DNA of 64,000 nt from Gammaproteobacteria bacterium (GCA_027021445.1 JALUUH010000138.1:8275-72274); one strand, 5' to 3'. Positions 25,808-41,458 are shown, counted from the first letter of the stretch. Notes: a model not told the origin generated them from the letters alone. A program made the numbers and translations.

Positions 25808-26197
25808 TTATTCTTCAAGAACCGATTGAGCATAATTTAGCGGGATCTTTAGTACTGTTTCTTGCTGCTTACTATTTCGGATATAAAGATTTAATATATC
25901 TTTTTGAGGGTCACGCACTGGCAATGCCGTTCGATACACACCCATATTGCCATCTTCAATGGCTTGCTTCCACTGACCGGTTTCACCTAAACGTAATTTC
26001 ACCAGTAAATCCCAGGCCGGTTTGCGCCCTTCTCTGTTAGCCACCACAAGAAATTCAACCATCCCAATTCGCGGAACTGGCGGTCTCGTTTCCACTCTAA
26101 AAGAGAGCCCTTCCCATTCCTGCGTAGGTGATGTTGGCACGTTTCCTGTGCACGATGAAATCATTAACACTAGCACAGCAATACAAATTTTATACAT
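25808..26197 (-). CDS. Lipoprotein of unknown function, 129 aa
   Basis: A lipobox is present ('LMISSC'). Its start overlaps the upstream stop (TAATG). Confidence 0.5.
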   Translation of the reverse strand: MYKICIAVLVLMISSCTGNVPTSPTQEWEGLSFRVETRPPVPRIGMVEFLVVANREGRKPAWDLLVKLRLGETGQWKQAIEDGNMGVYRTALPVRDPQKDILNLYIRNSKQQETVLKIPLNYAQSVLEE

Positions 26198-26505
26198 TAG
26201 GAGTCACTCGCATTTGAAATTAGGTAAGCTAACAATTCCTTTTTGTCATTCTCAGGAATCGCGTCAAGTGAATTCATAATTCGATGATTATTCATTCGAT
26301 AGATAACATTTGTCCATTCCGATGACTTGTGCTCCACAGGCTTAGGTGGCGCATGACAATCATTGCAATATTTCATCAACATTGGATGATTATTCGCCTT
26401 CAATATGGATAACTCTTCTTCCGCTGGCTTCCCCATATCTGAGCACGCTGAAATTAAACCTGTCAATGCAACGAATAACAACAGAAAAATGCTATTTCTT
26501 TGCAC
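26197..26505 (-). CDS. Small monohaem c-type cytochrome lipoprotein, 102 aa
   Basis: A lipobox is present ('GLISAC'). It has a single CxxCH (CNDCH). It is translationally coupled to its neighbours. Confidence 0.6.
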   Translation of the reverse strand: MQRNSIFLLLFVALTGLISACSDMGKPAEEELSILKANNHPMLMKYCNDCHAPPKPVEHKSSEWTNVIYRMNNHRIMNSLDAIPENDKKELLAYLISNASDS

Positions 26506-26908
26506 TATTTTCTGCTTCTTTCTTTTGCTTCAGTTTTTTTTCTTTTTTTTCTGCTAACTGATGACGCAGATCAACAAAGTAATAAATGATAAAACTCATA
26601 AAAACAACCCAAGCTACGCCTGCCGGAATACCCCAATCAAACCAGGGCCGCTCATAGCCCGGTCTATTTCCCCAGAAAGGAAACGTAAGACCCACCGCGA
26701 CAAGTAATAACACCACAAATATCGCAATAAACCAGTACGGGATAATGACGTTATTTTCCGCCATGTCTTCGACCATTTCCCAGTCTTCAAGGCCTCTTCT
26801 ATCTTTGCGCTCTGCATCGGATTTATATCCAAAATTATCGTCTCTAGACTCGCCCCATTTGGCCTCCTCGGTTGAGTCTGGATTTACGGTATCTCTTTTA
26901 GCGGGCAT
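26492..26908 (-). CDS. Membrane protein with CcoP-N-terminal (FixP_N)-like segment, no haem motif, 138 aa
   Basis: 'EDMAENNVIIPYWFIAIFVV' resembles the CcoP N-terminal 'DNPLPxWW' TM entry. It shares 'P(F/I)WG(N/Q)RP' with ORF 34939-35619. The C-terminal tail is lysine-rich. Confidence 0.5.
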   Translation of the reverse strand: MPAKRDTVNPDSTEEAKWGESRDDNFGYKSDAERKDRRGLEDWEMVEDMAENNVIIPYWFIAIFVVLLLVAVGLTFPFWGNRPGYERPWFDWGIPAGVAWVVFMSFIIYYFVDLRHQLAEKKEKKLKQKKEAENSAKK

Positions 26909-26912
26909 ATAC

Positions 26913-28241
26913 TTAACCTCGTGTCACTACGTGATTTAAACGTACAAAATTTTTCCAACCATCGTCGGATTCCGCCCTTACGATGAAACTATATACACCG
27001 GGTGCCAATCCCGCACTTAAGTGTAAAAACAAATCTTTGCGGCCAACGGTATCAAAGTTCATACTTTGCTCACTCAAGGTGTAATCACCTTCCCGCAGAC
27101 CTTCGATAGTAAGCGTCACTGTGCTTGGCTCAAAAAGCTTATTGGCAATATTAATACGATATTCCGTAATTTGCTTCCCTTGATGAACTTCAGATTGATA
27201 AACCGCCAAGTTATGCGCATCGTAGGTAAACAAACCATAAACAAAAATACCCATTCCAATAAACCACACGGGTAAAACCCACATAAGTCTTTGTTTTGCA
27301 CTCGGTAAAGGTCTCATCTGTCGATGACTCTCTGATAAAGTCTCTCTATCGCCCATTTTGAAACTCAATAAACCCTTTTTATTTTCCTTGGTGTGCATGG
27401 TATCGCAAGCAGTAACACAAGCACCGCAGTTAGTACAACTATCAAAAGTGGTTGTATTTCTCGGGTCGATTTGAACCATACACTTACTGACGCAATAAGA
27501 GCATTTCTCACATTCCGACGAGCGAGCCGAATCATAATGAATATGTAAGGTATCTTTGGTTTTGAATAGAAACTGCCAAATTCGATAGATGCACATATAA
27601 CGACAGAGAAAATGCCTTACAACGGCTAAATTCACAAAAACAATAAAGGCAAATACCATGTAAATCCAACGTAGGGAGAACGCCGTTTCAGATTGATCCT
27701 GGAAGGAGATTAAACCCCATAGTTGCCCAGGTTCGATGAAATATAACAGGGGAACTAAAGCAGCTACAAACGATAAGCCAAGAAGTTTAGTTCCTAATAG
27801 GAACCAATTAATCGCTTTGTTTTTATGCCCCGCCACCTTAGTTTTAGTCTGACTTTCCCAGTCAATGACCGCGCGTTTACCCAATAATTTAAAGGTGAAC
27901 TTATCCGCTAACGACGAAAAAGTATTTTGCGGACATAGCCACCCACAAAATGCGGTGCCAACGGTAGAATACAGCATAATAAATGTACATGCTAAGGCTA
28001 ACCATAAACCAAATACTAATGAAAAATCGGCAAACCAGACTTGACGCCCAAGCACAACAAACCCAGATGAAACATCAATTCTAAATATCCCCGTAAGCGG
28101 AATTAACAATAACAGGACAATCATCCCAAATTGAGAGCCCTGACGCACCCAATCTAGAGAGCTTCTATTGAGCCCGGCATCGGTGACTACTGCTATCTTA
28201 CTGAGTGCTTCGTTTGCTTTCATAGTGACCGATTCTAACAC
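26913..28241 (-). CDS. CcoG/FixG/RdxA-family polyferredoxin membrane protein, 442 aa
   Basis: Supporting motifs are 'CGWLCPQNTF' and 'CRYMCIYRIWQ'. Two 4Fe-4S motifs are present ('CEKCSYCVSKC', 'CTNCGACVTAC'). There is a C-terminal Ig-like region. Confidence 0.8.
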   Translation of the reverse strand: MLESVTMKANEALSKIAVVTDAGLNRSSLDWVRQGSQFGMIVLLLLIPLTGIFRIDVSSGFVVLGRQVWFADFSLVFGLWLALACTFIMLYSTVGTAFCGWLCPQNTFSSLADKFTFKLLGKRAVIDWESQTKTKVAGHKNKAINWFLLGTKLLGLSFVAALVPLLYFIEPGQLWGLISFQDQSETAFSLRWIYMVFAFIVFVNLAVVRHFLCRYMCIYRIWQFLFKTKDTLHIHYDSARSSECEKCSYCVSKCMVQIDPRNTTTFDSCTNCGACVTACDTMHTKENKKGLLSFKMGDRETLSESHRQMRPLPSAKQRLMWVLPVWFIGMGIFVYGLFTYDAHNLAVYQSEVHQGKQITEYRINIANKLFEPSTVTLTIEGLREGDYTLSEQSMNFDTVGRKDLFLHLSAGLAPGVYSFIVRAESDDGWKNFVRLNHVVTRG

Positions 28242-28484: not shown

Positions 28485-28604
28485 ATGGTTGATAACATAG
28501 GAATTAATATCCTTATTCCATTGGCAGTATTTGGCTTCATCATAGTTGGTTCATTGATGATGGCAGGCGCTGCACTTAAGGATACGCTTGAGCGTCGTAA
28601 ATAA
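28485..28604 (+). CDS. Small hydrophobic peptide, 39 aa (not in ORF track)
   Basis: The ATG is preceded by GGGGGA. The sequence is MVDNIGINILIPLAVFGFIIVGSLMMAGAALKDTLERRK. A strong terminator follows directly. Confidence 0.4.
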   Translation: MVDNIGINILIPLAVFGFIIVGSLMMAGAALKDTLERRK

Positions 28605-28622: not shown

Positions 28623-28650
28623 AAAAAAACCCGGCAAGCCGGGTTTTTTT
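28623..28650. terminator. Bidirectional rho-independent terminator
   Basis: The sequence is aaaaaaa-cccggcaagccggg-ttttttt. It can serve both the + strand peptide ORF and the minus-strand operon ending at 28675. Confidence 0.8.
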
Positions 28651-28674: not shown

Positions 28675-31299
28675 TTATAATGGCGGATTAATTTCCTTAT
28701 ATAGACTCCTATAATATTTGACCTGCTCCAGATCTCCCTCCGCTTCAGCTATCTCCCATAAATCTTTAATCGCAAAATAGTGATCCGATCTAATTCTAAG
28801 GATTTCTTCTAAAGCTTGCTTTGCTGAGAAGCCATGCTCCTGCGCTTGATTCTTCGATGTGTACATTTGATCCGCTAAACCAAAACCTAACCAACGATCT
28901 TTATTGTTATACGCATAACCTTCTCTTAACTTTTGCAGCGCTTTATTTGGATCACCTTGCAGCGAAAACATCATGCTCTCAGCCCACAAATCAGTTCCTT
29001 TATACGCATTGCCAAACTGTACAAGCTCATCATTTGGAATTGAAAATATACCAGCAACCAGGTTTTCTGCTTGACGCATCGATAACACATATAAAAAAGT
29101 TTCTAATAAATTAAATCTGCCTTCATATTTTGCTTGCGGCAAAAGAAACTCTAATTTGGGAGACCACTCTGACTGTATCGCCGCAACTCTTACATCCTCT
29201 ATGTCGCCGATATAACGGCTCATCCAAGTCCAAACTCCCTCATTACCCGTTTTCTCCATAGTCGCCGGATCATCATACGAAACAAAATGTGACCGCATCG
29301 AAGCATAGAAGTCTGGTTTTTCAAGCGACCCCACTAGCGCCAGCCTAAAACCATCCAAAAATATCGCCGAATGCGGAAATGAGCCTTTAAAAGTACTTAA
29401 AACAATTTTCAGAGATTGAATATCATATTGATTTAAAGCGATCCACTGCACAAAAAGTCCGCGCTGATTCAAGATTCTAGCGACTCGCGCAAAGTGCTCA
29501 CTGGACAATAACGCTCCCCTACCCACGAGATCTGGATGAAATAAATCCCCTATCACTACATCGTAACTGCGCTTTGTTAACTTAATATACCGCCTAACAT
29601 CGTCTCTAACGATATCAATTTTATTACTAACATCCAGATTAACCTTGGCAAAATAACTACCGGCAGACTCGATCGCCCCTGCAGATAATTCTACAGCTGT
29701 AATACTTACCTCAGGGAATGCTAACGCTCCCGACGCAGTAATTCCCGTACCTAAACCCAAAAACAATACCTCTTTTGGGTCGTGATGTAACAGCAAAGAT
29801 AATCTCGCTTGATTTTTCTGAACAGTAACTGCAGTAGGCTCAGTTGAAGCATCCATCCGCTGAAGATCAGAAAGCAACAAACGTTCACCCGATGGCTTAT
29901 CAACAACACTCGTTAAAGAAACTGCATCTTCATAATAAAAAACATCTTTGGAATTTTTAAATGCCTCAGGAAGCAGACTTGAAACAGCAGGAAAGCCGAG
30001 AAACAATAAACCAATGAGCGAAATTGAAACTGCAGATAGCTGATAGGACCTCGAAGGAGCCCAAGCCAAACCGGTAAAAACCACGACCAATATAGAAATG
30101 TATATAATGGATACCGAACCAAACACCGGCAATAAAACAAAAGCAGCCAGCAATGCACCGATGGCGCCACCCAGTGAATTTGCGCCATATAAAAGCACCG
30201 CATCCTCAGCGCTACCTGAGAGACTTTGAAGCAAAACCGGAAACCACATTCCGAATAGAAACGTAACGGGAAAAAACACTACAAACAACACAAAAAATTG
30301 ATTAATAATGGCTTCATTAAAACTTTGAAAGTCGCTTAATTCAGCCCACGAAGATACAAATGGCAGCAATAAGATAGATAACAGACCAAAAACCGCAATT
30401 AACAACGGAATTACTGCTAGCAATACCTTTCGCTGAAAAAACCGATGGGCAAAAGCACCTATACCTATGCCTAATAGAAAAATAGCCAAAAGCATGGCTA
30501 AAACATATTCAGTTCTTAATAACACCATTCCATAAAGCCGAACCCATGCTATTTGCAACATCAAAGCTGCCATCCCTATCAACCCATAAGCAATTAATGA
30601 GGTCTTACTAACAGAGTTTGGTTTTTTGCAGACTACTTTTGATTTACCTAGCTGATCTAAAAAAAAGGACAACACAAAACATAATATTGCGATAAACAAA
30701 CCTAATATTGCCACCAGACGAGAAGAAACTATCCAGCCAAACACAGGCAATAGATAAATTGGCGTAATTGAACCAACGACCCCGCCTATTGTATTAATTC
30801 CATAAATTTGCCCAACTGTAATTTTGTATGGCTTTAACACATCAAGTAACAACGCAAAGGTTGCGCCCATCGCAACAGCAGGAATGAAAAGGAGAATAAA
30901 ACATGCGACTGATTCCAAGAAAAGAAAGGAACTCCAACTATTTTGTTCCGTATTCAAATAAATGAAACCTTCAATTTCCGGAACAAATTTTGGTAGCAAA
31001 AAAGCAAAGATAGCAATAAAGGCTTCCAATAATGCGAACAGCCTTAACGGAGAAATATTGAGCCGGACAAAATAAGCCCCAAGAAACCCGCCAGCGCCTA
31101 GTCCGGCCATAAATGCGGCAACTGTAATGGCTACACCAAAAATGTTTACCCCAAATATAAGCGATAGCATACGAACCCATAATATTTCGTAGGCTAGAGA
31201 AGTAAATCCAGTTAGAAAATATGCAGTTGCTATTAAGAGAGCAATGAAGGGAAGTGTCGACTTAGTTGAAACTTGATTGCCTATAGTCGTTTCAGTCAT
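28675..31299 (-). CDS. Fused polytopic membrane domain / spermidine-synthase-like class-I methyltransferase-fold / C-terminal TPR-like protein, 874 aa
   Basis: The N-terminal region of about 450 aa has many TM helices. The middle 'VLFLGLGTGITASGAL...AVELS...YDVVIGDLFHP' is a SAM/dcSAM-binding, spermidine-synthase-like fold. The C-terminus is helical-repeat. Confidence 0.7.
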   Translation of the reverse strand: MTETTIGNQVSTKSTLPFIALLIATAYFLTGFTSLAYEILWVRMLSLIFGVNIFGVAITVAAFMAGLGAGGFLGAYFVRLNISPLRLFALLEAFIAIFAFLLPKFVPEIEGFIYLNTEQNSWSSFLFLESVACFILLFIPAVAMGATFALLLDVLKPYKITVGQIYGINTIGGVVGSITPIYLLPVFGWIVSSRLVAILGLFIAILCFVLSFFLDQLGKSKVVCKKPNSVSKTSLIAYGLIGMAALMLQIAWVRLYGMVLLRTEYVLAMLLAIFLLGIGIGAFAHRFFQRKVLLAVIPLLIAVFGLLSILLLPFVSSWAELSDFQSFNEAIINQFFVLFVVFFPVTFLFGMWFPVLLQSLSGSAEDAVLLYGANSLGGAIGALLAAFVLLPVFGSVSIIYISILVVVFTGLAWAPSRSYQLSAVSISLIGLLFLGFPAVSSLLPEAFKNSKDVFYYEDAVSLTSVVDKPSGERLLLSDLQRMDASTEPTAVTVQKNQARLSLLLHHDPKEVLFLGLGTGITASGALAFPEVSITAVELSAGAIESAGSYFAKVNLDVSNKIDIVRDDVRRYIKLTKRSYDVVIGDLFHPDLVGRGALLSSEHFARVARILNQRGLFVQWIALNQYDIQSLKIVLSTFKGSFPHSAIFLDGFRLALVGSLEKPDFYASMRSHFVSYDDPATMEKTGNEGVWTWMSRYIGDIEDVRVAAIQSEWSPKLEFLLPQAKYEGRFNLLETFLYVLSMRQAENLVAGIFSIPNDELVQFGNAYKGTDLWAESMMFSLQGDPNKALQKLREGYAYNNKDRWLGFGLADQMYTSKNQAQEHGFSAKQALEEILRIRSDHYFAIKDLWEIAEAEGDLEQVKYYRSLYKEINPPL

Positions 31300-31308
31300 A
31301 TAATAAAA

Positions 31309-31656
31309 TTAATATGGATAAAACCAAACAACCGCAGTGACCGCATGCGCCACTGTTAGAAATACCGAAACACCGGCAAATATCATATGAGGAACAAATA
31401 CATTTTTTCCATAAATCCCGAGAGCCAGGCCAAATGCAGATGTTGCAAAAATGAATACCAACAAAATAATTCCCATGATAAACAATATTTCATGCCTACC
31501 TTGATTGAGCTCACTCTCCTCTTGCACATTAGTTTCTACACTTTTGAAAGGCGCCATCACAGCCGCACCACTCGATTCGGTTGAAAAACTACTCATTGGA
31601 AAAGCAAGCAAAAGCAGTAAGAGACCAATTAAATGGACCTTAGTCATTTTTAGCAT
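31309..31656 (-). CDS. Small membrane protein (signal peptide + 2 TM, His-containing), 115 aa
   Basis: It sits in an operon with only a 9-nt gap. It is hydrophobic and contains 'VPHMIFAG...LTVAHAVTAVVWF'. Confidence 0.4.
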   Translation of the reverse strand: MLKMTKVHLIGLLLLLLAFPMSSFSTESSGAAVMAPFKSVETNVQEESELNQGRHEILFIMGIILLVFIFATSAFGLALGIYGKNVFVPHMIFAGVSVFLTVAHAVTAVVWFYPY

Positions 31657-31668
31657 TTGTATAACCTG

Positions 31669-31899
31669 TTATTTAGTTTTTTTTGAGGTATTGTCTTTTT
31701 TAAACGCAAAGCGCCAATACAATATTGCCATTAATACCGGAGCCGCAAGCACCATTGGCAATAAAAAGATAAAAATTGCCCAAGGTGTTTCTATCGTGAC
31801 GTGCAGCCATCTATAACTATCTGTTGCATCAGCAAAAGCAGACGATGAAAATAAAAGACTACAAACTACAGAATAAATGATTAAAAAATTCTTGCTCAT
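31669..31899 (-). CDS. Small membrane protein, 76 aa
   Basis: It has a signal peptide ('SSSAFADA') and one TM. It is packed within the operon. Confidence 0.4.
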   Translation of the reverse strand: MSKNFLIIYSVVCSLLFSSSAFADATDSYRWLHVTIETPWAIFIFLLPMVLAAPVLMAILYWRFAFKKDNTSKKTK

Positions 31900-31914
31900 A
31901 ATTATACCAACTGG

Positions 31915-32979
31915 TTAGTGATCTACATCTTTAACGGTGCGAAACCCATAAAAATCAGATGCAAAATTAGGCCATGAAAAGTTGCGATGATAGGACGAAG
32001 TTGAAAAAGGATCTCCTTTCCACGACCCACCCCTCATTACTTTATATCTTTCTTCAGTTTCCATAAAGTCTAACATTTTTAAATTTCGTTCTTTTGAATC
32101 TTTAGGGATAATGGGAACTTTTGCCTTGAACAGAGACTCAGATGCCTCGCTACCCTTGTATGGATAAAAATCATCCTCGACCCATTCACTCACATTTCCT
32201 GCCATATCCATTACCCCGTATGGGCTAGCACCCTGAGGATAAGTCGTTACATCCGTAGTAGACCCAACATGATAGTAGGTATTTAGGCGCTTAGGATCCA
32301 TTTTATTCCCCCAAGGCCAGCGTCTAGCATCTTCACCCCTGGCTGCCTTTTCCCACTCAACCTCTGATGGAAGTCGCTTACCCGCCCATTCTGCATACGC
32401 TCTAGCATCAAACCATGAAACCAATACAACCGGGTGCATTTTCAAACCCAAAGGTATTTTTCCAGATTCCCAGTGTAATGGCGGCCGATAGTCAGTGGCT
32501 GCAATGAATCTCGCATATTGAGCATTGGTTACCGGATATTTATCAATTTCATAAGCTGCAACATTCACGATATGCGCTGGCTTGTTCTGCGAGTCAGCTT
32601 TTCTATCATCGGTACCCAAACTATACTCACCAGCGGGAATGAGTATTCTGGTATCAAGTTCATTCCAAACTTCTTCGGTCAATAATGCATTAGCCTCATC
32701 AACAGAATAAGTTACCTTAGGGATCGCTCTGTCCTCTTGAGCTTGGTTTCGATATAAGTCTTCTCCCGCCGCTCTAAGATGATCATTTAATTCAGAGAGG
32801 TCATACGCTGCAAGATCGCGCATTTGGGTCATTCGGTTTAAACCCAACTCCAGAACATGGATGGTGCCCATAACGAGCGCAATTACGATACAAGACACAA
32901 AAGTAGCGCCTAGAATTTTTTTCCTGAATAATATCTGATCAGATGAAACTTTAGTTCTTTTCAAAGCTGGGACTTGCAT
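31915..32979 (-). CDS. Membrane-anchored formylglycine-generating-enzyme-fold protein (SUMF1/EgtB/PvdO/NirV family), 354 aa
   Basis: It has an N-terminal TM. Supporting motifs are 'YEIDKYPVTNAQYARFI', 'HPVVLVSWFDARAYAEWAGKRLPSEVEWEKAARG', 'GNVSEWVED' and 'VMRGGSW'. Confidence 0.8.
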   Translation of the reverse strand: MQVPALKRTKVSSDQILFRKKILGATFVSCIVIALVMGTIHVLELGLNRMTQMRDLAAYDLSELNDHLRAAGEDLYRNQAQEDRAIPKVTYSVDEANALLTEEVWNELDTRILIPAGEYSLGTDDRKADSQNKPAHIVNVAAYEIDKYPVTNAQYARFIAATDYRPPLHWESGKIPLGLKMHPVVLVSWFDARAYAEWAGKRLPSEVEWEKAARGEDARRWPWGNKMDPKRLNTYYHVGSTTDVTTYPQGASPYGVMDMAGNVSEWVEDDFYPYKGSEASESLFKAKVPIIPKDSKERNLKMLDFMETEERYKVMRGGSWKGDPFSTSSYHRNFSWPNFASDFYGFRTVKDVDH

Positions 32980-32988
32980 TACAGAACC

Positions 32989-33516
32989 TCATAAACTTTC
33001 TTTGTTAATATCAGCTGCGGATTCAGGTTTCTTGCTTTCCACTTTATTTTGATAACGAATGTGTCTATCAGACTTTGAACTTCGGCCATACGTTTTTTTG
33101 ATAACATACTCGCCGACTATTCCACCACCTGCGCAAGCTTCCACACAAACAATAACAATCAAAATCCAGTAGCCAATTGGCAGCACTGAAACACCTTCAG
33201 CTAAAAACCGAGTGTCATACGAAATAATATACTCGGGTATCAAAATCAATAGGGGGGGAAAATTGGCCAGCATTTTTCCGCCTAAGCCATAAATAGCAGA
33301 TACAAGCATCCCAGCGATAAACGGAACGACTATGATTGTTACAATCCACATTGGCCGGAAAGTATGTAAAAGCCCGTAATATAGCTCCAAATTTACGCCA
33401 GTTAGCATCTTGCCAAAATAGAAAACAACTGCGCCTGCAAAGACAGCAAATAACGCCCATCCTACATCGAGTATTTTTATTTTACGGGATAGGTTCTGAA
33501 TCATCGGTATAATCAT
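32989..33516 (-). CDS. Polytopic membrane protein of unknown function, ~171-175 aa
   Basis: It has 4 predicted TM helices and overlaps the upstream gene. The start is uncertain (33516 or 33504). Confidence 0.45.
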   Translation of the reverse strand: MIIPMIQNLSRKIKILDVGWALFAVFAGAVVFYFGKMLTGVNLELYYGLLHTFRPMWIVTIIVVPFIAGMLVSAIYGLGGKMLANFPPLLILIPEYIISYDTRFLAEGVSVLPIGYWILIVIVCVEACAGGGIVGEYVIKKTYGRSSKSDRHIRYQNKVESKKPESAADINKESL

Positions 33517-33988
33517 TTCCAGTTAATTTTTCATAACGTTTTTTTGTGGCATCTTGTAAATACCAATCCTTAACCTTTAACGTTGCAAGGTATTTAGCTA
33601 AAGTTTGACGCTCATCCACACTCAAGTGCGCATAGGAAGGCATACGATATTTTGGCTTCAACCTCGAGGGCAAAATATCTTGCGGAACCTCCGATGACAA
33701 ATAATTAAACAGCCAAGCTTCATCTCTAAACTCTCCAACACCATCAATAGCAGGCGCGGGTACAGCTTGATTCAGATCCCTGGTTCCCCATATAAAATGG
33801 CATTCTCTGCAATGAAGAGTTCGGAGAATATTTCCTGCTTTATTAGCTAGTTCTGGGCTAGCATTTGAAACAAATGGTATATCCATTTCTTCTTCAGCTA
33901 CATCTTCTTTATTACCAAACTTCAAGCCTGCAATTATTGCAACACTTAAAATCATCGCTACAGCGATACCTTTTTCACCGGTTCTCAT
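33482..33988 (-). CDS. Membrane-anchored monohaem cytochrome c with CcoO-like haem domain, 168 aa
   Basis: It has a TM anchor and a single CRECH. 'PAPAIDGVGEFRDEAWLFNYLSS...YRMPSY' parallels the CcoO pattern 'GPDL..VG.R....W...HL..P....MP.Y'. Confidence 0.65.
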   Translation of the reverse strand: MRTGEKGIAVAMILSVAIIAGLKFGNKEDVAEEEMDIPFVSNASPELANKAGNILRTLHCRECHFIWGTRDLNQAVPAPAIDGVGEFRDEAWLFNYLSSEVPQDILPSRLKPKYRMPSYAHLSVDERQTLAKYLATLKVKDWYLQDATKKRYEKLTGNDYTDDSEPIP

Positions 33989-34263
33989 TTTTTACGTGCT
34001 TTCGCCTCAAGCTTCTCTCTTAGAACATCCTTGCGTTTTTGCTCTTGTTCTTTTTGTATTTTAAGCATGTATTCGTATTCTTCAGGTTCCATTTTATCTT
34101 TGTCTTTTTCATCAAAGACAACATATTTTATATCTTCATCAAACTGTTCGTTTTTAGCCGCCCAGCGCAAAGCGATACCTGCACCAACTAATATTAGCGC
34201 AGCAACCACCAACCATAAATATATAGTCCATCCATCGGGTAGATTTTGAAAAAAATCAGCCAT
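33985..34263 (-). CDS. Single-TM protein with highly charged C-terminal tail, 92 aa
   Basis: The TM is 'IYLWLVVAALILVGAGIAL' and a K/E-rich tail follows. It has a 4-nt ATGA overlap with the next gene. Confidence 0.45.
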   Translation of the reverse strand: MADFFQNLPDGWTIYLWLVVAALILVGAGIALRWAAKNEQFDEDIKYVVFDEKDKDKMEPEEYEYMLKIQKEQEQKRKDVLREKLEAKARKK

Positions 34264-34274
34264 ACATAATTCCT

Positions 34275-34616
34275 CTAAATCAAGTAACCTTCAATTAACT
34301 GTACATAACCCATAATTACCGCTAAAAATAGTCCAATAATTATCGCGCCAAACATAACTTTTTCACCCGTTTTTAGTTTCTTGTCATCACCCTTTGGCAT
34401 ATATAGATAAATTATAAATCCAAATACAAGTAACGAAAGAACTAAAAAGAAAAAAATATAATTACTGAATACCTGTGAACGCAGACCTTCAATACTCATA
34501 TCTACGCCAAACACAATATTATTATCAGAAACACTCTCAACGACAAATGTCGGCAGCCAATCAAAAACTAATATCTGGCTCATGATGGAGAAAACTAAAC
34601 TACTAAAAACTTCCAT
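34275..34616 (-). CDS. Membrane protein of unknown function, 113 aa
   Basis: It is the first ORF after the terminator at 34709-34745 and has 3 hydrophobic segments. Confidence 0.4.
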   Translation of the reverse strand: MEVFSSLVFSIMSQILVFDWLPTFVVESVSDNNIVFGVDMSIEGLRSQVFSNYIFFFLVLSLLVFGFIIYLYMPKGDDKKLKTGEKVMFGAIIIGLFLAVIMGYVQLIEGYLI

Positions 34617-34708: not shown

Positions 34709-34745
34709 AAAAGAAAAGCCGCTCCATTAAGGAGCGGCTTTATTT
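34709..34745 (-). terminator. Rho-independent terminator ending the ccoN-like operon
   Basis: An 8-bp stem (gccgctcc / ggagcggc, 34718-25 / 34731-38) has a 5-nt loop and T-rich flanks on both strands. Confidence 0.7.
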
Positions 34746-34776: not shown

Positions 34777-34926
34777 TTAATTAAATACATCGTCGTCATT
34801 GCCCGCTTCTTCTGAATGGCGCTTCCAATGAGCATCTACTAGGAATATCCCATACAAAGTAGGACAAAGAATAGCGAACGCTATCATGCCAGCAAATACA
34901 CCTGGCGCATAATCATAATCAATCAT
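34777..34926 (-). CDS. Small TM peptide, 49 aa (not in ORF track)
   Basis: The upstream context is TAAGGAGTCATACAAATG, so an AGGAG SD sits right after the upstream stop. The sequence is MIDYDYAPGVFAGMIAFAILCPTLYGIFLVDAHWKRHSEEAGNDDDVFN. Confidence 0.5.
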   Translation of the reverse strand: MIDYDYAPGVFAGMIAFAILCPTLYGIFLVDAHWKRHSEEAGNDDDVFN

Positions 34927-34938
34927 TTGTATGACTCC

Positions 34939-35619
34939 TTATATTCTACCAATGTCAGGCTTTCTCGTAAAATGAGGTAGCTGCTTAATAACAATAATCA
35001 TTGTTATTATGAAATAAGTCACATAAAAAACATCAATCGTGTAACCCTTATCCCACCATGGCTGCAAACGTTCACGAACCAGTTTTCCACCTATTTCAAC
35101 ATAGTTGCCTTCGAAATTAGCAAGAACGATTCTATCACCGATTACGTTATACCAACTTAAAGGGTATAAGCCACCATTTTGAATTTCACGAATACCAGGC
35201 GCGATATTTAGAAGATCATCCCAAGTAATTGGATGTCTCTCCAAAGCACCCTGCAGACGACTATCAGCGCCACTATAAACCAAATTATAGAGATACTCGA
35301 TTTTCTTCTCCGGATCAGCGATTTGCTGTACTTCAGGCGAATTCATATTCGCAACAAATTCCTTGAAGTTGTCAGCAGTAGGCCGCTGCCCCCAGATAGG
35401 CATGGTTATCATGAACGCCGTAAGTATTATCAACGCCATGATTAAAACTAAAGGCATCGGAAGACGATTATTGCCTTCACTTAACCCACCATGTTTTTCT
35501 TTTTCCCAATGCTCTATCATTTCTTTCTGTTCTTTATCATCAGAAAGGCAGTATAGAGGCTGATCAAATTTCCAACCCATAATTAAATCCCCCGTTATCT
35601 CAAGCTCGTCATAATCCAA
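34939..35619 (-). CDS. Haem-less CcoP-position protein: FixP_N-like TM entry + soluble domain + C-terminal TM, 213-226 aa
   Basis: 'EGNNRLPMPLVLIMALIIL' resembles the CcoP N-terminus, and 'PIWGQRP' is present. No CxxCH is present. The likely start is ATG 35580 (GGGGGA SD) rather than 35619. Confidence 0.5.
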   Translation of the reverse strand: MDYDELEITGDLIMGWKFDQPLYCLSDDKEQKEMIEHWEKEKHGGLSEGNNRLPMPLVLIMALIILTAFMITMPIWGQRPTADNFKEFVANMNSPEVQQIADPEKKIEYLYNLVYSGADSRLQGALERHPITWDDLLNIAPGIREIQNGGLYPLSWYNVIGDRIVLANFEGNYVEIGGKLVRERLQPWWDKGYTIDVFYVTYFIITMIIVIKQLPHFTRKPDIGRI

Positions 35620-36575
35620 TCTACCAATGCACGAACCTGTGAATCAGCTGCAGGCTCAGGCACATCAGGCGGATAAATTGAATCACCTTTAAGGTACGTC
35701 ATATACTCAGCTCGCCACTTAGGAAAGTCAATTGATGCACCGCTAGCATCGCGAGCATCCGAAGGACCTTTACCAATTGGCGCCCAAAGATAATCAAACC
35801 TAGGCATGATTGAGTTAGGCTGAACTAAACGCGGATTAAAAAAGTGCATATACATCCATTCACGCGATGAATTACGTGAAGCTACGTGCAAAATATCCGG
35901 TGCTTTACGATCTGAACCGAAAGCGGTAGGCATTTCACCATTGAAGTCACCAAGATATGGCGGAGTACCAAAATACTGCCAATCTTGGGTTTCTTCTGGT
36001 AGCAATGTATGACACCACCAGCAACCCTCTGTGATATAGATGGTTTTACCTGCTCCAACAAATCGCTTAGCATCATCACCAACCGAACTTAGAACCTTAT
36101 CTACCGTCCATCCACGTACTGCCGTTGCATTCTCCACATAATCCAACTCTTCACCGTTGAACTCACCTTTAACAATGGTGAACACTATACCGTCACCCGG
36201 TTTAGCATCGTTAATTTTGCCAACATTGACACTTAACTCTTCAACCCCTAAACCAAGCTGATCAGTATGATTAATACCAGGCGAAAATGGAGTACCAGGC
36301 TTGTATACATAAGCTCTTATTGGCGGATCAATTGCAGCGCCCGTTGAAGGATCTTTGTCTAAAATTACAGTTACTGGCTTACCATCACCTCGCACCAAAG
36401 GATCTTCATAACTAAATCCTATAAGACGACCAGCAGAAAGCTGTTTATCCAAGCCAACCCAAGTAGAAACACCTGAACGGAAGTCAAAACTTGGGAAGAA
36501 CAGTGTAATACTCATTGAAAAGCCCATCATCAAACCGATGCCGGCTGAACCAAATTTATGTTGTCTAAAACCCAC
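35595..36575 (-). CDS. CcoO-like monohaem subunit with ~150-aa insertion between TM anchor and haem domain, 326 aa
   Basis: 'GKTIYITEGCWWCHT' and 'FGSDRKAPDILHVASRNSSREWMYMHFFNPRLVQPNSIMPRFDYLW' match the canonical CcoO/FixO pattern. The extra segment spans roughly residues 40-190. Confidence 0.8.
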   Translation of the reverse strand: MGFRQHKFGSAGIGLMMGFSMSITLFFPSFDFRSGVSTWVGLDKQLSAGRLIGFSYEDPLVRGDGKPVTVILDKDPSTGAAIDPPIRAYVYKPGTPFSPGINHTDQLGLGVEELSVNVGKINDAKPGDGIVFTIVKGEFNGEELDYVENATAVRGWTVDKVLSSVGDDAKRFVGAGKTIYITEGCWWCHTLLPEETQDWQYFGTPPYLGDFNGEMPTAFGSDRKAPDILHVASRNSSREWMYMHFFNPRLVQPNSIMPRFDYLWAPIGKGPSDARDASGASIDFPKWRAEYMTYLKGDSIYPPDVPEPAADSQVRALVDWIMTSLR

Positions 36576-36666: not shown

Positions 36667-38076
36667 TTACCGCTCGTAAGCCATTTCATGCGCATAACGA
36701 CCATCAGGTATGATAGTACCTTCACGGGCTGTCATCCACATGTTGTATAACCAAATTGTGTTACCGGTAAATACCATAGTTCCACCAATCCAACGTGCAA
36801 TCATATATGGATGCTCAGCAATAACCACATCAATATATGGAACTTCGTAGATTTTACCAGCGCCTTGAATGAGTCCGGCGATAGTCATGGATATCCAGTA
36901 AATACAGAAACCTACAATTACAAACCAATAATGCAGATTTGCCAAGGCTAATGAATAGAGTTTACGGCGTAACATTGCTTGTAAACCGAAGTAAACTGCA
37001 GCAATCTCTAGGAATGTAGACATTCCTAACAACGCTAAATGCGCATGCGCAACAATCCAACCAGTACCATGTACGTACCAGTTAATAGCGCGAGTTTGCT
37101 GGAAGCCACCTTGCATATTCAATGGAATCGCAAGCAAAACACCTGTTACGGAGAATTTGATTTCTACATTCTCTACAAACAAGCTCCACTTACCTTTCAT
37201 TGTTAACAATATGTTAGCAATAAAAGCCACTGCCGGGATAAGAATCAAAACACCTTCTACTGAAGCAAAAGACTTCAACCATTCAGGCAGCGGAGCCGAC
37301 ATCAAATGATGAGAAGCGGGTGTTGAGTAGAAAGCGATGATTGACCAAAAATGCAAATGACCAATTCTATGCGAATAAAGGGGATTCCCCGTTATTTTTG
37401 GAATTGTATAATAAGCAATAGCCGCTGCAACCGGCGTGATCCATAGACCAAGCAAGTTATGTGCGTGCCAGAAAGTCAAATAAGCTTCTGTTAAACCAGT
37501 CAGGTTAAAGAGCTCGGGTGATTGACCAATAGTTACTGTGATTATGGTCAAAAATATCATCGAGCCAAAAAACCAGTTCGTGATGTATATGCCCTGGGTT
37601 TTACGATGAGCAATTGTCATCCAAACATTAATACCCAATGGAAGTAAAACACCAAAAATAACGACTAAATCGATAGGCCAAATCAAGTCACTGTATTCAC
37701 GACCTGAAGTAATCCCCATCCATAACAATAGAAGCCCTAGACTTAAACCAATGTTCCATAGAAACACATTCCATAAGCCTAATTTTTCTGACCATAACTT
37801 GGTATTACCCAGTGATGGCGTCATGTACATCATCGTCATGGCAAAAGCCATAGAAATCCAACCAAGAATTACCGCAAGCACATGCACTTGACGCATATGG
37901 CCAAACGCAAATAACTCCGTACCAGTAACCCAGTCAGGAAACGCAAGTTTTGCAGCGTTAAACGAGCCTAAACCCGTTCCTACTACAAACCAGAAAATAG
38001 ATGAATAACCAAAGAATATGGTTGCCGACCCAACCGGTATGTCCTCATTCTTTGCAAATAATAATTTTAGCAGCAT
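36667..38076 (-). CDS. C-family (cbb3-type) haem-copper oxidase catalytic subunit, CcoN-like, 469 aa
   Basis: It has 12 TM helices. By my count, H65 ('MRQVH'), H206 ('WHAHN'), Y250 with H256/H257 ('AFYSTPASHH') and H344/H346 ('VAHAH') are present. Their spacing equals that of the CcoN ligand set including the cross-link Tyr. Confidence 0.85.
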   Translation of the reverse strand: MLLKLLFAKNEDIPVGSATIFFGYSSIFWFVVGTGLGSFNAAKLAFPDWVTGTELFAFGHMRQVHVLAVILGWISMAFAMTMMYMTPSLGNTKLWSEKLGLWNVFLWNIGLSLGLLLLWMGITSGREYSDLIWPIDLVVIFGVLLPLGINVWMTIAHRKTQGIYITNWFFGSMIFLTIITVTIGQSPELFNLTGLTEAYLTFWHAHNLLGLWITPVAAAIAYYTIPKITGNPLYSHRIGHLHFWSIIAFYSTPASHHLMSAPLPEWLKSFASVEGVLILIPAVAFIANILLTMKGKWSLFVENVEIKFSVTGVLLAIPLNMQGGFQQTRAINWYVHGTGWIVAHAHLALLGMSTFLEIAAVYFGLQAMLRRKLYSLALANLHYWFVIVGFCIYWISMTIAGLIQGAGKIYEVPYIDVVIAEHPYMIARWIGGTMVFTGNTIWLYNMWMTAREGTIIPDGRYAHEMAYER

Positions 38077-38231: not shown

Positions 38232-38522
38232 TTACCAACCAGTGTTATCGCGTTGAGACTCGATTTCACCATGTTTTTTCATTGCTAGACCAAAGATGAT
38301 CGCGAAAGCAAGCCCAAAAGCAAGCATCATGACATCTACGAAACCCGAGAAAGTTGATGGATTATAAGCTTCTCCATACCAACCGCCCCAGCTTTCATAC
38401 GGCCCTCTACCAACCGCACACATAACCGCGGCACCAAACACACTTCCATTCCCCATACCGGTAGTAAAAGCACCGATAACAAGAGCCCAGAAAGTCTTTC
38501 CTATTGTTAACTTATTTTGCAT
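38232..38522 (-). CDS. Small 3-TM membrane protein, 96 aa
   Basis: I moved the start to ATG 38522 (GGAGG upstream). The protein is Gly-rich and hydrophobic. It is the first gene of the ccoN-like operon. Confidence 0.5.
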   Translation of the reverse strand: MQNKLTIGKTFWALVIGAFTTGMGNGSVFGAAVMCAVGRGPYESWGGWYGEAYNPSTFSGFVDVMMLAFGLAFAIIFGLAMKKHGEIESQRDNTGW

Positions 38523-38797
38523 CTCCACCCTCCGAAGCAAATGATAAGACCCTATTAAAACGCAAATTCCCAAAGCAAATTATGATAATTAGTTTATGAA
38601 AACTTACACATCCCCCAAGCAAATGAGGAAACCTTGGCAGATTGACACAGCTAATGATTAACGTCAAGATAATTGTATGAAAAAACAATGGGCGACAAAA
38701 TGTTGGCAATCCCATAACAAAAAATAATACAATCATCACATTGAGAACACATAGAAACAACTATCTGTTTAATCAAAAATTAGAAAAGGCAGGAAAA

Positions 38798-39105: not shown

Positions 39106-39561
39106 TTACCTAAACACACGAAGCAAAGCCTTCGCTTCACTAAAGCTGCTTTCACTTGAAAATTGACCCTTATGAAAAACTTGCTGCTGTTTTTTTCCTT
39201 CCCCATCCAAACCGGACAAGCCTATACTTTTACCCGCAGTATCCGAAAAAAACCTCACATCCTTCACCATATCGATTGCTTCGCCGTTGCGCAACTCCAA
39301 ACGCACCGACTTATGTGACACATCCAAAGCTATAGCCGATGACGGCAATATCATTAACCGAGTTTTGGCAATGCGATTAAATGCGATCAAGAAAATCATA
39401 GTCGTCATAAACACTAATAGATAAGTAATGTTTTGCTCTCCATTAAACCAAAATTGCGCGGCAATTGAGACCAACGCTACCAGTGTTGGAATATATAGCA
39501 GCAAATCCCACTTCACGCCCTTTTTATCTTGCACAAACTCAAATCTAGAACTTTTTGACAT
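39106..39561 (-). CDS. Membrane protein (2 TM + soluble C-terminal domain), 151 aa
   Basis: It is an ORF packed 4 nt after the upstream gene. I recognised no motif. Confidence 0.45.
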   Translation of the reverse strand: MSKSSRFEFVQDKKGVKWDLLLYIPTLVALVSIAAQFWFNGEQNITYLLVFMTTMIFLIAFNRIAKTRLMILPSSAIALDVSHKSVRLELRNGEAIDMVKDVRFFSDTAGKSIGLSGLDGEGKKQQQVFHKGQFSSESSFSEAKALLRVFR

Positions 39562-39565
39562 ATAC

Positions 39566-40072
39566 CTAACCTTTCTGCTCTGCCAGTATCCGGCCTAATA
39601 CACCATCCAACTCACCATAAAGTAGGCGACCAGGCCGACGAAACACAACTGTACCAGAAGTATCAATAATAAATGTCCACGGATCACCCTTAACCCGATA
39701 GGAAATAAACGCCTCTGGATTCATATATTGATCCATATGCAGAAAAATAACATCTTTTCCATACTTATCAATAATGGCTTTTAACATTTGGAGCTGCTTA
39801 TCACACACCGTACAATGACCAGGCGTAGCAAACTCAATAACAACCGCCTTGTTCAACGCAAGAGCATCATCAACTGAATACTGATACATTCGCGCATCAG
39901 GATGACGATAACTCGTCAACCTACTTAAGTCCCCGCCCACATCATCAATGAATTTGGTTCGCAGACTCGGCGCCTCCATTCCCAAACCCAATTTGCCCGC
40001 AGGATCTTCCATTCCACAGCCAACCAGAAGACTAAACACACCTAATAACAAAGAAAACTTAACGAGCCTCAT
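39566..40072 (-). CDS. TlpA-like thioredoxin-fold lipoprotein (redoxin family), 168 aa
   Basis: I moved the start to ATG 40072. A lipobox is present ('SLLVGCG'). 'VVIEFATPGHCTVCDKQL' has the CxxC in the thioredoxin position. Confidence 0.65.
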   Translation of the reverse strand: MRLVKFSLLLGVFSLLVGCGMEDPAGKLGLGMEAPSLRTKFIDDVGGDLSRLTSYRHPDARMYQYSVDDALALNKAVVIEFATPGHCTVCDKQLQMLKAIIDKYGKDVIFLHMDQYMNPEAFISYRVKGDPWTFIIDTSGTVVFRRPGRLLYGELDGVLGRILAEQKG

Positions 40073-40589
40073 AAGCTTTTTCCCAATTAGAGCAGGTCTT
40101 ATATAAATTATACGCCCAGACAAAATTTGCTAATAAAACCAAGGTACCAAATATGCCCATGATAGCCAATAAAGGCTTCACTATAACCTCTACTTCCTGA
40201 GGCGTAGACATCACACTGGCCATACCACCCATTGTTCCAGCCATAACAAAAAACACCACCATACCGATGACACCCACGTTATGAACCCAAAAATGCACCT
40301 TAACTAAAGCCAAGCTGTAAATTGGCCTCTTGACCAGTCGCGGAACAATATAATAGATAGCTGCAAATATTGCCATTTCGACCCACCCAAGTAAATTTAT
40401 ATGAGTGTGGCCACGCACTATTAAATCACCATGAAGACGATGATCGACGAAATAGCGAAACTCAGCTATTCCTCCCATTAAAGCACCCCATGAAAAACCG
40501 ATAATACTGTATATGATACATGCATATACAAACCACAAAGTATACTTTCGATACTCAATATCATTCTCATGAATCCACGGCAAAGACAT
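40059..40589 (-). CDS. Stand-alone membrane protein homologous to CcoN helices ~IX-XII, 176 aa
   Basis: 'RGHTHINLLGWVEMAIFAAIYYIVPRLVKRPIYSLALVKVHFW' aligns with 'VAHAHLALLGMSTFLEIAAVYFGLQAMLRRKLYSLALANLHYW' of ORF 36667-38076. ATG 40589 is the likely start. Confidence 0.6.
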   Translation of the reverse strand: MSLPWIHENDIEYRKYTLWFVYACIIYSIIGFSWGALMGGIAEFRYFVDHRLHGDLIVRGHTHINLLGWVEMAIFAAIYYIVPRLVKRPIYSLALVKVHFWVHNVGVIGMVVFFVMAGTMGGMASVMSTPQEVEVIVKPLLAIMGIFGTLVLLANFVWAYNLYKTCSNWEKAYEAR

Positions 40590-40612
40590 TTGCAACAACC
40601 CTTCTATTTTAA

Positions 40613-41209
40613 TTATTTATCTTCCAACAAAACATCTGCCTCTGTAGGCGTCTTTTCTCTAATATCTGTATATTTATCACCCCATTCTTTAGGAGCCCAC
40701 ATTTCCACCATATTATCAATAAAAGCCGACTTTTCGGGCGGCGGCACTTTAGCAACAGAAGAACCAGGATCCGCCTTGAGCTCAGATAAAAATACCACAA
40801 TAGCATGCCGATCTTCAGCACTCATTTCACTGGCATAAGCTGCTTCTTTTGGGCGCAAACCATGGTCTAAAGTAATCCCGCCCTCATACACCGATTCCGG
40901 ATGCAAAAGAAATTGAGCCAGCCATTCTTTTGAACGTTTGGAACCAATCCCATCCAGAGACAGGCCCATACTGGTGCCAGTTCTTAATGCTCGATGACAG
41001 GAATTGCAACGTGCTTCACGGTATATTTTAGAACCCTGACTCCCTAATGGCGAAAAATCAAAATGCGTTGTCTGAGCAAACAAAGGCTCTTCAGAATTCA
41101 GTCTCACCGTTTCCAATCCAACGTATGCAATTAACGCCAACAAGAAAAAAACCCCAAATACTATAAATAAAATTTTCTCACCCGACTTTAAAGATTGTTT
41201 TTTTTTCAT
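40613..41209 (-). CDS. Membrane-anchored monohaem cytochrome c with CcoO-like haem domain, 198 aa
   Basis: It has a TM anchor and a single CNSCH. 'GLSLDGIGSKRSKEWLAQFLLHP' parallels CcoO. The start at ATG 41209 is preferred over the TTG at 41248. Confidence 0.65.
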   Translation of the reverse strand: MKKKQSLKSGEKILFIVFGVFFLLALIAYVGLETVRLNSEEPLFAQTTHFDFSPLGSQGSKIYREARCNSCHRALRTGTSMGLSLDGIGSKRSKEWLAQFLLHPESVYEGGITLDHGLRPKEAAYASEMSAEDRHAIVVFLSELKADPGSSVAKVPPPEKSAFIDNMVEMWAPKEWGDKYTDIREKTPTEADVLLEDK

Positions 41210-41410
41210 TATGTAACCGCACCAAATTAATTTAAAAAGCAATGGCAAAGAACTGCGAGCATATAGACTTGCTAATAAATGACTAGTTCACCCTTGCAAA
41301 ATATAAATATTGAAAGCAAAACATGTACGCTCGCCAAATCTAACAAAAAACCTCTAGAGAAAAAATCAATTTCGCAAATTATATTTCAATAAAACCCTAC
41401 TTTATTAAAA

Positions 41411-41450
41411 ACAAAAAAAAAGCGGGCTAAATGCCCGCTTTTCTTTTTTG
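41411..41450 (-). terminator. Rho-independent (bidirectional-looking) terminator after the cytochrome c4 gene
   Basis: The sequence is A8-agcgggc-taaat-gcccgct-T-rich. Confidence 0.8.
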
Positions 41451-41458
41451 CTTTTTAA

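Follow-up and report, generated by a model that had tools for sequence, protein, structure and literature searches.

An eight-gene operon conserved beside the distal-type cbb3 oxidase of iron-, nitrite-, and electrode-oxidizing Proteobacteria: a candidate accessory module

Layout and conservation of the operon

A 64,000-nucleotide (nt) stretch of DNA from a Gammaproteobacteria bacterium (GCA_027021445.1 JALUUH010000138.1:8275-72274), referred to here as the window, carries on its minus strand eight tightly packed genes, g1 to g8, that follow the structural genes of a divergent cbb3-type oxidase. In order of transcription they encode a 113-amino-acid membrane protein with two strong hydrophobic segments (g1, 34275-34616), a 92-residue apparent homologue of CcoS/FixS with a charged C-terminal extension (g2, 33985-34263), a 168-residue membrane-anchored monoheme class I cytochrome c (g3, 33482-33988), and a 175-residue polytopic membrane protein (g4, 32989-33516). 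These are followed by a 354-residue protein that joins an N-terminal membrane anchor to the fold of formylglycine-generating enzyme (FGE) without that enzyme's cysteine pair (g5, 31915-32979), two small proteins in which a signal-like segment accompanies one or two transmembrane (TM) segments, respectively (g6, 76 residues, 31669-31899; g7, 115 residues, 31309-31656), and an 874-residue fusion of a domain like those in major facilitator superfamily (MFS) proteins, an aminopropyltransferase fold, and a tail resembling tetratricopeptide repeats (TPR) (g8, 28675-31299). Successive genes overlap by 4 nt (g2/g3) or 35 nt (g3/g4) or are separated by gaps of 9 to 15 nt. The only in-frame starts of g4 are the ATG codons at 33516 and 33504, so that the g3/g4 overlap is either 35 or 23 nt. 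The same eight open reading frames (ORFs) were called independently on the 102-kb source metagenome contig, and their coordinates bear out the packing noted in a preliminary description of the window that had been made from sequence alone.

The eight-gene set is real and widely conserved, not a chance juxtaposition. A profile of g8 homologues led to 377 places in one-genome-per-species collections, and the best 80 of these 377 were kept, comprising, as judged by record titles, 26 from Gallionellaceae and other Betaproteobacteria, 6 from Nitrotoga, 3 from Zetaproteobacteria, 39 from Gammaproteobacteria (many labeled Chromatiales or Ectothiorhodospiraceae), and 6 unclassified. Synteny was scanned by tblastn of 23 window proteins against the 80 genomes, with counts restricted to loci with enough flanking sequence. 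The order ccoN-ccoO-p226-g1 through g8, where p226 is a 226-residue membrane protein, was colinear on one strand in 55 of 57 such loci, each of the 55 having ccoN, ccoO, p226, g1, g2, g3, g5, g6, and g7. The FGE-like, cytochrome c, and spermidine-synthase-like trio, whose survey across genomes the preliminary description had proposed, is therefore syntenic. For single genes, a same-strand colinear homologue was present in 63/64 to 70/71 loci with room for it (g1, 63/64; g4, 63/66; g6 and g7, 70/71 each), and the upstream oxidase block was colinear in 55 to 57 of 57 to 59 loci. Carriers include Gallionella, Sideroxydans, Nitrotoga, Zetaproteobacteria, and Chromatiales-like Gammaproteobacteria.

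Protein identity across these loci was 74 to 98% for CcoN and 30 to 65% for most of the other proteins, a level low enough that the shared gene order reflects conservation and not recent common descent. The nearest relative of the window, which has 40% G+C, is a metagenome-assembled genome (MAG) labeled Ectothiorhodospiraceae, with 98% identity in CcoN and 73% in g8. The converse test gave the same picture: all four genomes reached through CcoN homologues (74 to 88% identity), including that of cultured Mariprofundus ferrooxydans, keep the downstream order, with FGE-sulfatase, Spermine_synth, and Fer4_5 genes downstream of ccoN.

Two terminator-like hairpins had been predicted to flank the operon, and both were found on the minus strand. 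The upstream one (34715-34741, given earlier as 34709-34745), which is G+C rich and has a T tail, lies between g1 and p49, the small gene that ends the oxidase structural block. Of 62 related loci, 45 have a comparable T-tailed hairpin between p226 and g1, whereas the other gaps scanned almost never contain one. The downstream hairpin, AAAAAAACCCGGCTTGCCGGGTTTTTTT (28623-28650), lies 3' of g8 and is a feature of the window's lineage. In relatives, the gap between g8 and the CcoG-like gene that follows it has a median of 35 nt and contains a hairpin in 4 of 61 loci; in the window the two genes are 433 nt apart, with the terminator and a small opposite-strand ORF between them. Given this short gap and the rarity of a hairpin in it, the natural unit consists of g1 to g8 together with the CcoG-like gene and two genes beyond it, d138 and d129. 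The eight genes are not a stand-alone unit: they follow ccoN-ccoO-p226-p49 and in most genomes run into the CcoG-like gene. The small ORF (28485-28604, plus strand), which gene calling on the source contig also picked up, would encode the 39-residue hydrophobic peptide MVDNIGINILIPLAVFGFIIVGSLMMAGAALKDTLERRK, and one related locus (L087) has a 41-residue opposite-strand gene at the same position. Between 24 and 43 kb of the window, no Rfam match to a riboswitch or other known RNA was found.

Products of the eight genes

The three-part architecture first proposed for g8 is supported. A 12-TM MFS-like domain and a 13th hydrophobic segment precede an aminopropyltransferase fold at residues ~450 to 660 and a TPR-like helical tail at ~715 to 874. 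The protein scores 80.7 bits against NCBIfam NF037959, "fused MFS/spermidine synthase," above the cut-off of 40, and among 22 homologues Pfam detects Spermine_synth in all 22, MFS_1 in 8, and TPR_19 in 4. An AlphaFold2 model of high confidence (predicted local distance difference test [pLDDT], 91.5; predicted TM-score [pTM], 0.90) was compared with the PDB by Foldseek, and the top 50 matches were all polyamine aminopropyltransferases, with target-normalized TM-scores of 0.57 to 0.68. The full fold of SpeE aminopropyltransferases, including the N-terminal beta domain, is common to g8, which differs from them and from the NF037959 family in an additional first, MFS-like half and in the subfamily-specific tail. 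Scores against speE models were 41 to 78 bits, with cut-offs of 250 to 537. In the literature, we found no member of the fused MFS/spermidine synthase family with a tested function.

Residues E537 (the acidic residue after strand 2), D566/D567, and D585 are invariant among g8 homologues. Motif I of aminopropyltransferases reads GGGDG, and its Asp selects decarboxylated S-adenosylmethionine (dcSAM). The corresponding motif of g8 is L-G-L-G-T-G at 514 to 519 (GLGTG), with T518 invariant, so the nucleotide-binding motifs look intact and the site looks suited to S-adenosylmethionine (SAM) rather than to dcSAM. The dcSAM binding once considered for this protein therefore fits poorly, an invariant Thr having replaced the specifying Asp. 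H588 appears to stand at the position of the second substrate-binding Asp of the Thermotoga maritima enzyme.

Across 71 g8 homologues, the charges of the loops are consistent with an MFS-like core of 12 TM segments in N-in/C-in orientation, after which comes the 13th hydrophobic segment. Were that segment to cross the membrane, the aminopropyltransferase fold and the TPR domain would be periplasmic. A role of the MFS domain as a CcoA-type copper importer was considered and rejected: the M243-x3-M247 pair of the window's protein is not conserved, its first Met being Ala in the family consensus. An exhaustive search without a profile gave 4,297 related protein clusters for g8 (E <= 1e-30). Among the first ~40 representatives listed (36 to 45% identity), the alignment was mostly near full length and included the C-terminal tail; in most of the remaining clusters (28 to 34% identity) it covered the membrane and aminopropyltransferase parts only. 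The TPR-like tail therefore marks the oxidase-linked subfamily.

The FGE fold assigned to g5 is likewise supported (Pfam FGE-sulfatase, 3.5e-55), and Foldseek ranks CalU17, ToxD, OvsA, EgtB, FGE, pFGE, and PvdO about equally, all with probability 1.0. The AlphaFold2 model (pLDDT, 82) has a TM helix and short helices in its N-terminal 110 residues, and the loop at the position of the FGE Cys pair is modeled with low confidence. The fold and the motifs HPV, WPWG, GNVxEW, RGGSW, and GFR are common to g5 and its relatives (FGE, pFGE, the C-terminal domain of EgtB/OvsA, PvdO, ToxD, CalU17, and PorK/GldK). Unlike these relatives, g5 is membrane anchored, and it reaches no named equivalog cut-off: it scores 114.7 against TIGR03440 (EgtB; cut-off, 360), matching the C-terminal domain only, and 51.9 against NF051459 (PvdO; cut-off, 500), and it also falls far below the cut-off of the GldK equivalog. 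EgtB carries a DinB-type iron domain, whereas g5 has none. FGE binds Cu(I) through a Cys pair, whereas the only Cys of g5, C30, which is also the only Cys conserved in orthologue alignments, sits in the membrane anchor, so the pair is absent. Judged by these residues, g5 has the FGE fold but is not an FGE, and the analogy with copper-dependent FGE, for which a check of the Cys pair had been suggested, is not supported, nor is that with its fold relative NirV. The cluster contains no nirK-like gene.

The cytochrome g3 has its heme site at C60-x-x-C63-H64 and a conserved M116 (Pfam Cytochrom_C, 22.2 bits; cut-off, 21.3). It had been described as a third CcoO-type cytochrome, an assignment that we reject, as its likeness to the CcoO of the window is not significant (BLASTP E = 0.6) and it is far closer to an upstream monoheme cytochrome, u4, of which it is a paralogue (E = 8e-8). 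Pfam gives no FixO match for g3, a single homologue has a "faint" precomputed one, and that of u4 is subthreshold.

The small membrane proteins, too, had been reported to lack recognizable motifs. This stands for g1, g4, g6, and g7, which match no Pfam or NCBIfam family, but not for g2, which appears to be a FixS/CcoS homologue: it scores 25.2 bits against Pfam FixS (cut-off, 23.1), FixS matches 16 of 19 orthologues, and Q40, F41, D42, E43, and D44 (QFDED), directly after the single TM helix, are invariant. Against the NCBIfam ccoS equivalog TIGR00847 it scores 16.3, below the cut-off of 28.35. The four proteins without a family keep conserved residues of their own: E43, S47, S51, E85, and Q106 in g1; E44, W57, K81, Y96, W117, E136, and K140 in g4; the motif D27-S-Y-R30...H33 in g6; and invariant H90-M91 and H104 in g7, giving H-x13-H on one predicted TM helix. 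A pair of His residues 14 apart on one helix has the spacing of bis-His heme b sites. The His-Met...His set of g7 would also suit a Cu(I) site, and no family match backs either heme or copper.

Flanking genes and the published locus

All flanking genes of the conserved locus lie on the minus strand with g1 to g8. The adjacent CcoN (36667-38076; Pfam COX1, 4.6e-72) is divergent, scoring 221 bits against the canonical ccoN model, whose cut-off is 583. Residues H65, H206, Y250, H256, H257, H344, and H346 align with Pseudomonas stutzeri 3mk7_A, and 57 of 57 CcoN orthologues carry the motifs holding the cross-link Tyr and the His ligands of heme b, heme b3, and CuB. Because all six His ligands and the Tyr are kept, the protein is an O2 reductase; the kept CuB ligands and cross-link Tyr rule out a nitric oxide reductase. 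The CcoO-like protein (35595-36575; 326 residues; Pfam FixO, 9.3e-16) has an N-terminal insertion: the FixO profile covers residues 175 to 264 only (profile positions 52 to 141 of 219), and canonical CcoO has no equivalent of the ~150 residues that separate the N-terminal TM helix from the heme domain. The structural block continues with p226 (34939-35619) and p49, a 49-residue membrane protein (34777-34926), and ccoN is preceded by a gene for a 113-residue membrane protein (38232-38573). No canonical CcoP or CcoQ was found at the locus in Pfam and NCBIfam scans. This oxidase without CcoP and CcoQ, which is probably of the distal type, is characteristic of lithotrophs that use high-potential donors, namely, Zetaproteobacteria, Gallionellaceae including Nitrotoga, and Tenderiales-like Gammaproteobacteria.

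Downstream of g8 lie the CcoG-like polyferredoxin (26913-28241; Pfam Fer4_18 and Fer4_5), the membrane protein d138 (26492-26908), a lipoprotein monoheme cytochrome c (26197-26505), and the lipoprotein d129 (25808-26197), colinear in 65/74, 61/69, 19/68, and 55/68 loci, respectively. At 116 bits against TIGR02745 ccoG (cut-off, 316.7), over model positions 38 to 385 of 435, the polyferredoxin is a CcoG homologue and not an equivalog. d138 and p226 have paralogous N-terminal modules (BLASTP E = 6e-5), each with an acidic W-E region and then a TM helix that ends in P-x-W-G-x-R-P; one copy of the module comes after CcoO, the other after the CcoG-like gene. Neither protein matched a known family. 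We considered both as remnants of the CcoP N-terminal anchor and set the idea aside, since Pfam gave no match, a PDB profile search gave nothing significant, and their mutual paralogy was the only support; d129 as an analogue of CcoH/FixH was likewise dropped, with no Pfam, NCBIfam, or PDB match.

An upstream module comprises genes for a dihaem c4-type, Cyc1-like cytochrome (41459-42220), the monoheme cytochrome u4 (40613-41248), a 179-residue truncated CcoN-like protein, u3 (40059-40598), a thioredoxin-like lipoprotein (39566-40123), and a 151-residue protein (39106-39561). u3 shows homology to the four last TM helices of CcoN (E = 3e-15; matching Pfam COX1 positions 301 to 435), and its H-T-H motif aligns with the A-H-A-H heme b3/heme b ligands. 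Its position next to u4, the paralogue of g3, suggests a second, miniature module of cytochrome plus CcoN fragment within the locus. The segment directly upstream of ccoN varies among relatives. It holds a three-domain multicopper-oxidase gene and two cytochromes c in M. ferrooxydans (locus L083, 7219-9394) and an alternative-complex-III operon, complete with molybdopterin, NrfD, and ActD genes, in a betaproteobacterial MAG (L086, 1960-9347). A multicopper-oxidase-domain gene 5' of ccoN was seen in M. ferrooxydans only, and with such lineage-specific insertions a copper enzyme lies close to the FGE-like gene in some genomes only. Pfam gives no match at E <= 1e-5 for a 498-residue ORF just outside the conserved locus (42716-44212, plus strand), and elsewhere the window holds ordinary chromosomal genes, such as those for PutA, ArgRS, aminotransferases, and glutamate dehydrogenase.

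Within a conserved locus of about 20 to 26 genes the operon takes the middle position, and the locus itself has been described, although the preliminary description knew of no described pathway with this gene set. Emerson 2013 (PMC3770913) listed 20 genes in conserved order common to Sideroxydans ES-1 and Mariprofundus PV-1, mostly hypothetical and of unknown function, 14 of which have homologues in Leptospirillum. A conserved region of 26 to 30 genes was then reported in "Candidatus Tenderia electrophaga" and Tenderiales (Eddie 2017, PMC5371394; Eddie 2022, bioRxiv 10.1101/2022.05.06.490989), and the later study put forward a membrane-bound complex plus assembly factors, described as "a sort of alternative complex IV." The Tenderiales "cbb3-1/cbb3-2" region matches the locus of the window gene by gene. 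Its upstream part (dihaem cytochrome, monoheme cytochrome, truncated CcoN, and thioredoxin) agrees in order and sizes, the module at 39106-42220 corresponding to genes 2 to 6 of the Eddie 2022 list, in which u3 is the "truncated CcoN." From CcoN onward the region runs through CcoO, three unknowns, a monoheme cytochrome, an unknown, and a "Ser/Thr kinase," which is the FGE-like gene, and it ends with a small TM protein, an unknown, a "spermidine synthase," CcoG, an unknown, and a monoheme cytochrome.

These papers offer no domain-level analysis of the eight genes and assign them no function, nor did we find in the literature any paper that does so for any of the eight or that links FGE-like or spermidine-synthase-like genes to cbb3 oxidases. 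Papers on Sideroxydans, Zetaproteobacteria, and Gallionellaceae name this form of the oxidase "distal cbb3" and report very high expression.

A probable accessory role and its alternatives

We think it probable, with real room for doubt, that g1 to g8 form an accessory or biogenesis operon of the distal-type cbb3 oxidase of iron-, nitrite-, and electrode-oxidizing Proteobacteria. A maturation role tied to the neighboring oxidase, raised in the preliminary description, is plausible, and has more behind it than was apparent then, in light of the CcoS homologue inside the operon, the CcoG-like gene that is co-operonic in most genomes, the near-invariant synteny with ccoNO, and transcript levels well below that of ccoN. 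In "Ca. Tenderia," length-adjusted log2 expression is 13.25 for ccoN and 10.35 for CcoG, and for the homologues of g1 to g8 it is 10.2, 10.7, 10.5, 10.0, 9.6, 9.4, 9.5, and 8.2 (Eddie 2017 Table S3, PMC5371394). Transcripts of the eight thus lie 6- to 34-fold below ccoN, declining gradually along the operon and rising again at CcoG. The conserved hairpin would punctuate transcription after the very highly expressed ccoN-ccoO-p226-p49, so that the accessory genes would be made at about a tenth of the structural level or less. The CcoS-like g2 and the CcoG-like ferredoxin, co-operonic in most genomes, could serve cofactor insertion into CcoN (heme b/b3 and CuB); g3 is a candidate electron-entry partner in place of the missing CcoP; g1, g4, g6, and g7 may be assembly chaperones or minor subunits; and g5 and g8 may contribute a lineage-specific step, whether modification of a small molecule or protein or transport and scaffolding.

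Among the closest known systems is the canonical ccoGHIS (fixGHIS) cluster. As there, members of the FixS/CcoS and CcoG families stand beside ccoNO in the window. The canonical cluster has no counterpart for six further genes, including the FGE-fold protein and the MFS-aminopropyltransferase-TPR fusion, and CcoH and CcoI have no match in the window, either among the scanned ORFs of the cluster or among the ten large Pfam-scanned ORFs outside it.

That lack of CcoH and CcoI is one of several points that weigh against an accessory role. Homology to CcoS (g2) and CcoG is weak, both proteins falling below their NCBIfam equivalog cut-offs. The data themselves establish the presence of the genes, their homologies and folds, their synteny, the conservation of the hairpin, and the transcript ratios published for "Ca. 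Tenderia." Since support for the link to the oxidase consists of synteny and co-inheritance, we infer, rather than observe, an action of the products on the oxidase or together with it, as we do each individual biochemical role. Even that linkage has exceptions. One locus labeled Chromatiaceae (L059, 1-7000) has g1 to g8 without ccoNO upstream, and in a Gallionella MAG (L068, 257-9755) the g8 homologue follows ORFs of 2,607 and 552 residues in place of its usual partners. The "Ca. Tenderia" genes were equated with those of the window by order, length, and annotation, not by sequence alignment, and their lower mRNA levels are also compatible with substoichiometric or regulatory subunits. Any mechanism for g8 is limited by the fact that loop charges cannot show whether its 13th segment spans the membrane. 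The choice of assembly factors over subunits has weaker support, drawn from the hairpin, from the transcript ratios, and from the two homologues of biogenesis proteins.

In a bolder version of the accessory role, which we regard as unlikely, the 13th hydrophobic segment of g8 would bring its aminopropyltransferase and TPR domains into the periplasm, the protein's own MFS domain would supply them with a SAM-type cofactor or substrate, and g8 would act with g5 in an extracytoplasmic modification (alkyl transfer or oxidation) of the oxidase, its cytochromes, or a cofactor. If true, such a step would be without precedent in the maturation of heme-copper oxidases, and a periplasmic SAM-type fold would be equally unprecedented.

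One alternative, possible although we give it a good deal less than even weight, is that g1 to g8 encode structural subunits of an enlarged terminal-oxidase supercomplex, in keeping with the membrane-bound complex proposed by Eddie 2022 as an alternative complex IV. Here g3 would substitute for CcoP, the small TM proteins would be supernumerary subunits like CcoQ or CcoM, and the large soluble domains of g5 and g8 would let periplasmic donors such as Cyc1 dock. Nearly all products of the eight genes are membrane proteins, the locus lacks canonical CcoP and CcoQ, and the layout of g3, an anchor plus a heme domain, fits an electron-entry subunit. An FGE fold can also be noncatalytic, as in pFGE and PorK/GldK, which are among the sequence or structure matches of g5. 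Such a complex is harder to reconcile with the conserved terminator-like hairpin that splits g1 to g8 from ccoNO-p226 and with transcripts 6 to 34 times below ccoN in "Ca. Tenderia." Moreover, both the CcoS homologue and the CcoG-like gene, co-operonic in most genomes, speak for biogenesis, and the invariant nucleotide-binding motifs of g8 suggest an enzyme over a scaffold.

It is improbable, in our view, that g5, g8, and the small membrane proteins instead make, mature, or transport a small molecule, such as a polyamine-like compound or a SAM-derived metal chelator for handling copper or iron, with an indirect link to the oxidase through metal supply or envelope protection. The idea has appeal in that g8 combines an MFS domain resembling transporters with an aminopropyltransferase fold, keeps E537, D566/D567, and D585 invariant, and has the SAM-type GLGTG as motif I, and in that the closest structural relatives of g5 include the tailoring proteins CalU17, ToxD, EgtB/OvsA, and PvdO. 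The MFS-aminopropyltransferase architecture without the C-terminal tail also occurs in thousands of clusters outside this locus. However, no decarboxylase, synthetase, or other biosynthetic gene was found in the cluster or among the scanned large ORFs of the window, the TPR-like tail specific to the oxidase-linked subfamily suggests protein-protein contacts, and the near-invariant linkage to ccoNO would be left to explain. A chance or merely historical neighborhood, in which g5 would serve sulfatase maturation as an FGE and g8 would be a usual spermidine synthase, neither having to do with respiration, has the database names "formylglycine-generating enzyme family protein" and "spermine synthase" in its favor but is effectively refuted by synteny and motifs, as the set is colinear across Beta-, Gamma-, and Zetaproteobacteria despite protein identities of only 40 to 60%, g5 lacks the FGE Cys pair, no sulfatase was found among the Pfam-scanned window ORFs of at least 400 residues (that at 42716-44212 having no Pfam match at all), and g8 has no dcSAM-specifying Asp and lies far below every speE equivalog cut-off.

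The oxidase beside which the proposed accessory operon lies is the terminal oxidase of the accepted Cyc2-to-Cyc1-to-cbb3 model of neutrophilic iron oxidation, and its genes rank with those most strongly expressed by Sideroxydans and "Ca. Tenderia"; the distal ccoNO genes of S. lithotrophicus reach the 99th expression percentile (PMC8788666). Beside it stand eight to twelve co-inherited genes without an assigned role, two of them for enzyme-like proteins of unusual design. We know of no cbb3 biogenesis pathways beyond those of the ccoGHIS, CcoA, and SenC type from model Proteobacteria. The roles of g1 to g8 would show how an oxidase without CcoP and CcoQ is assembled and fed by high-potential donors, and the operon could add new factors to the biogenesis of cbb3 oxidases.

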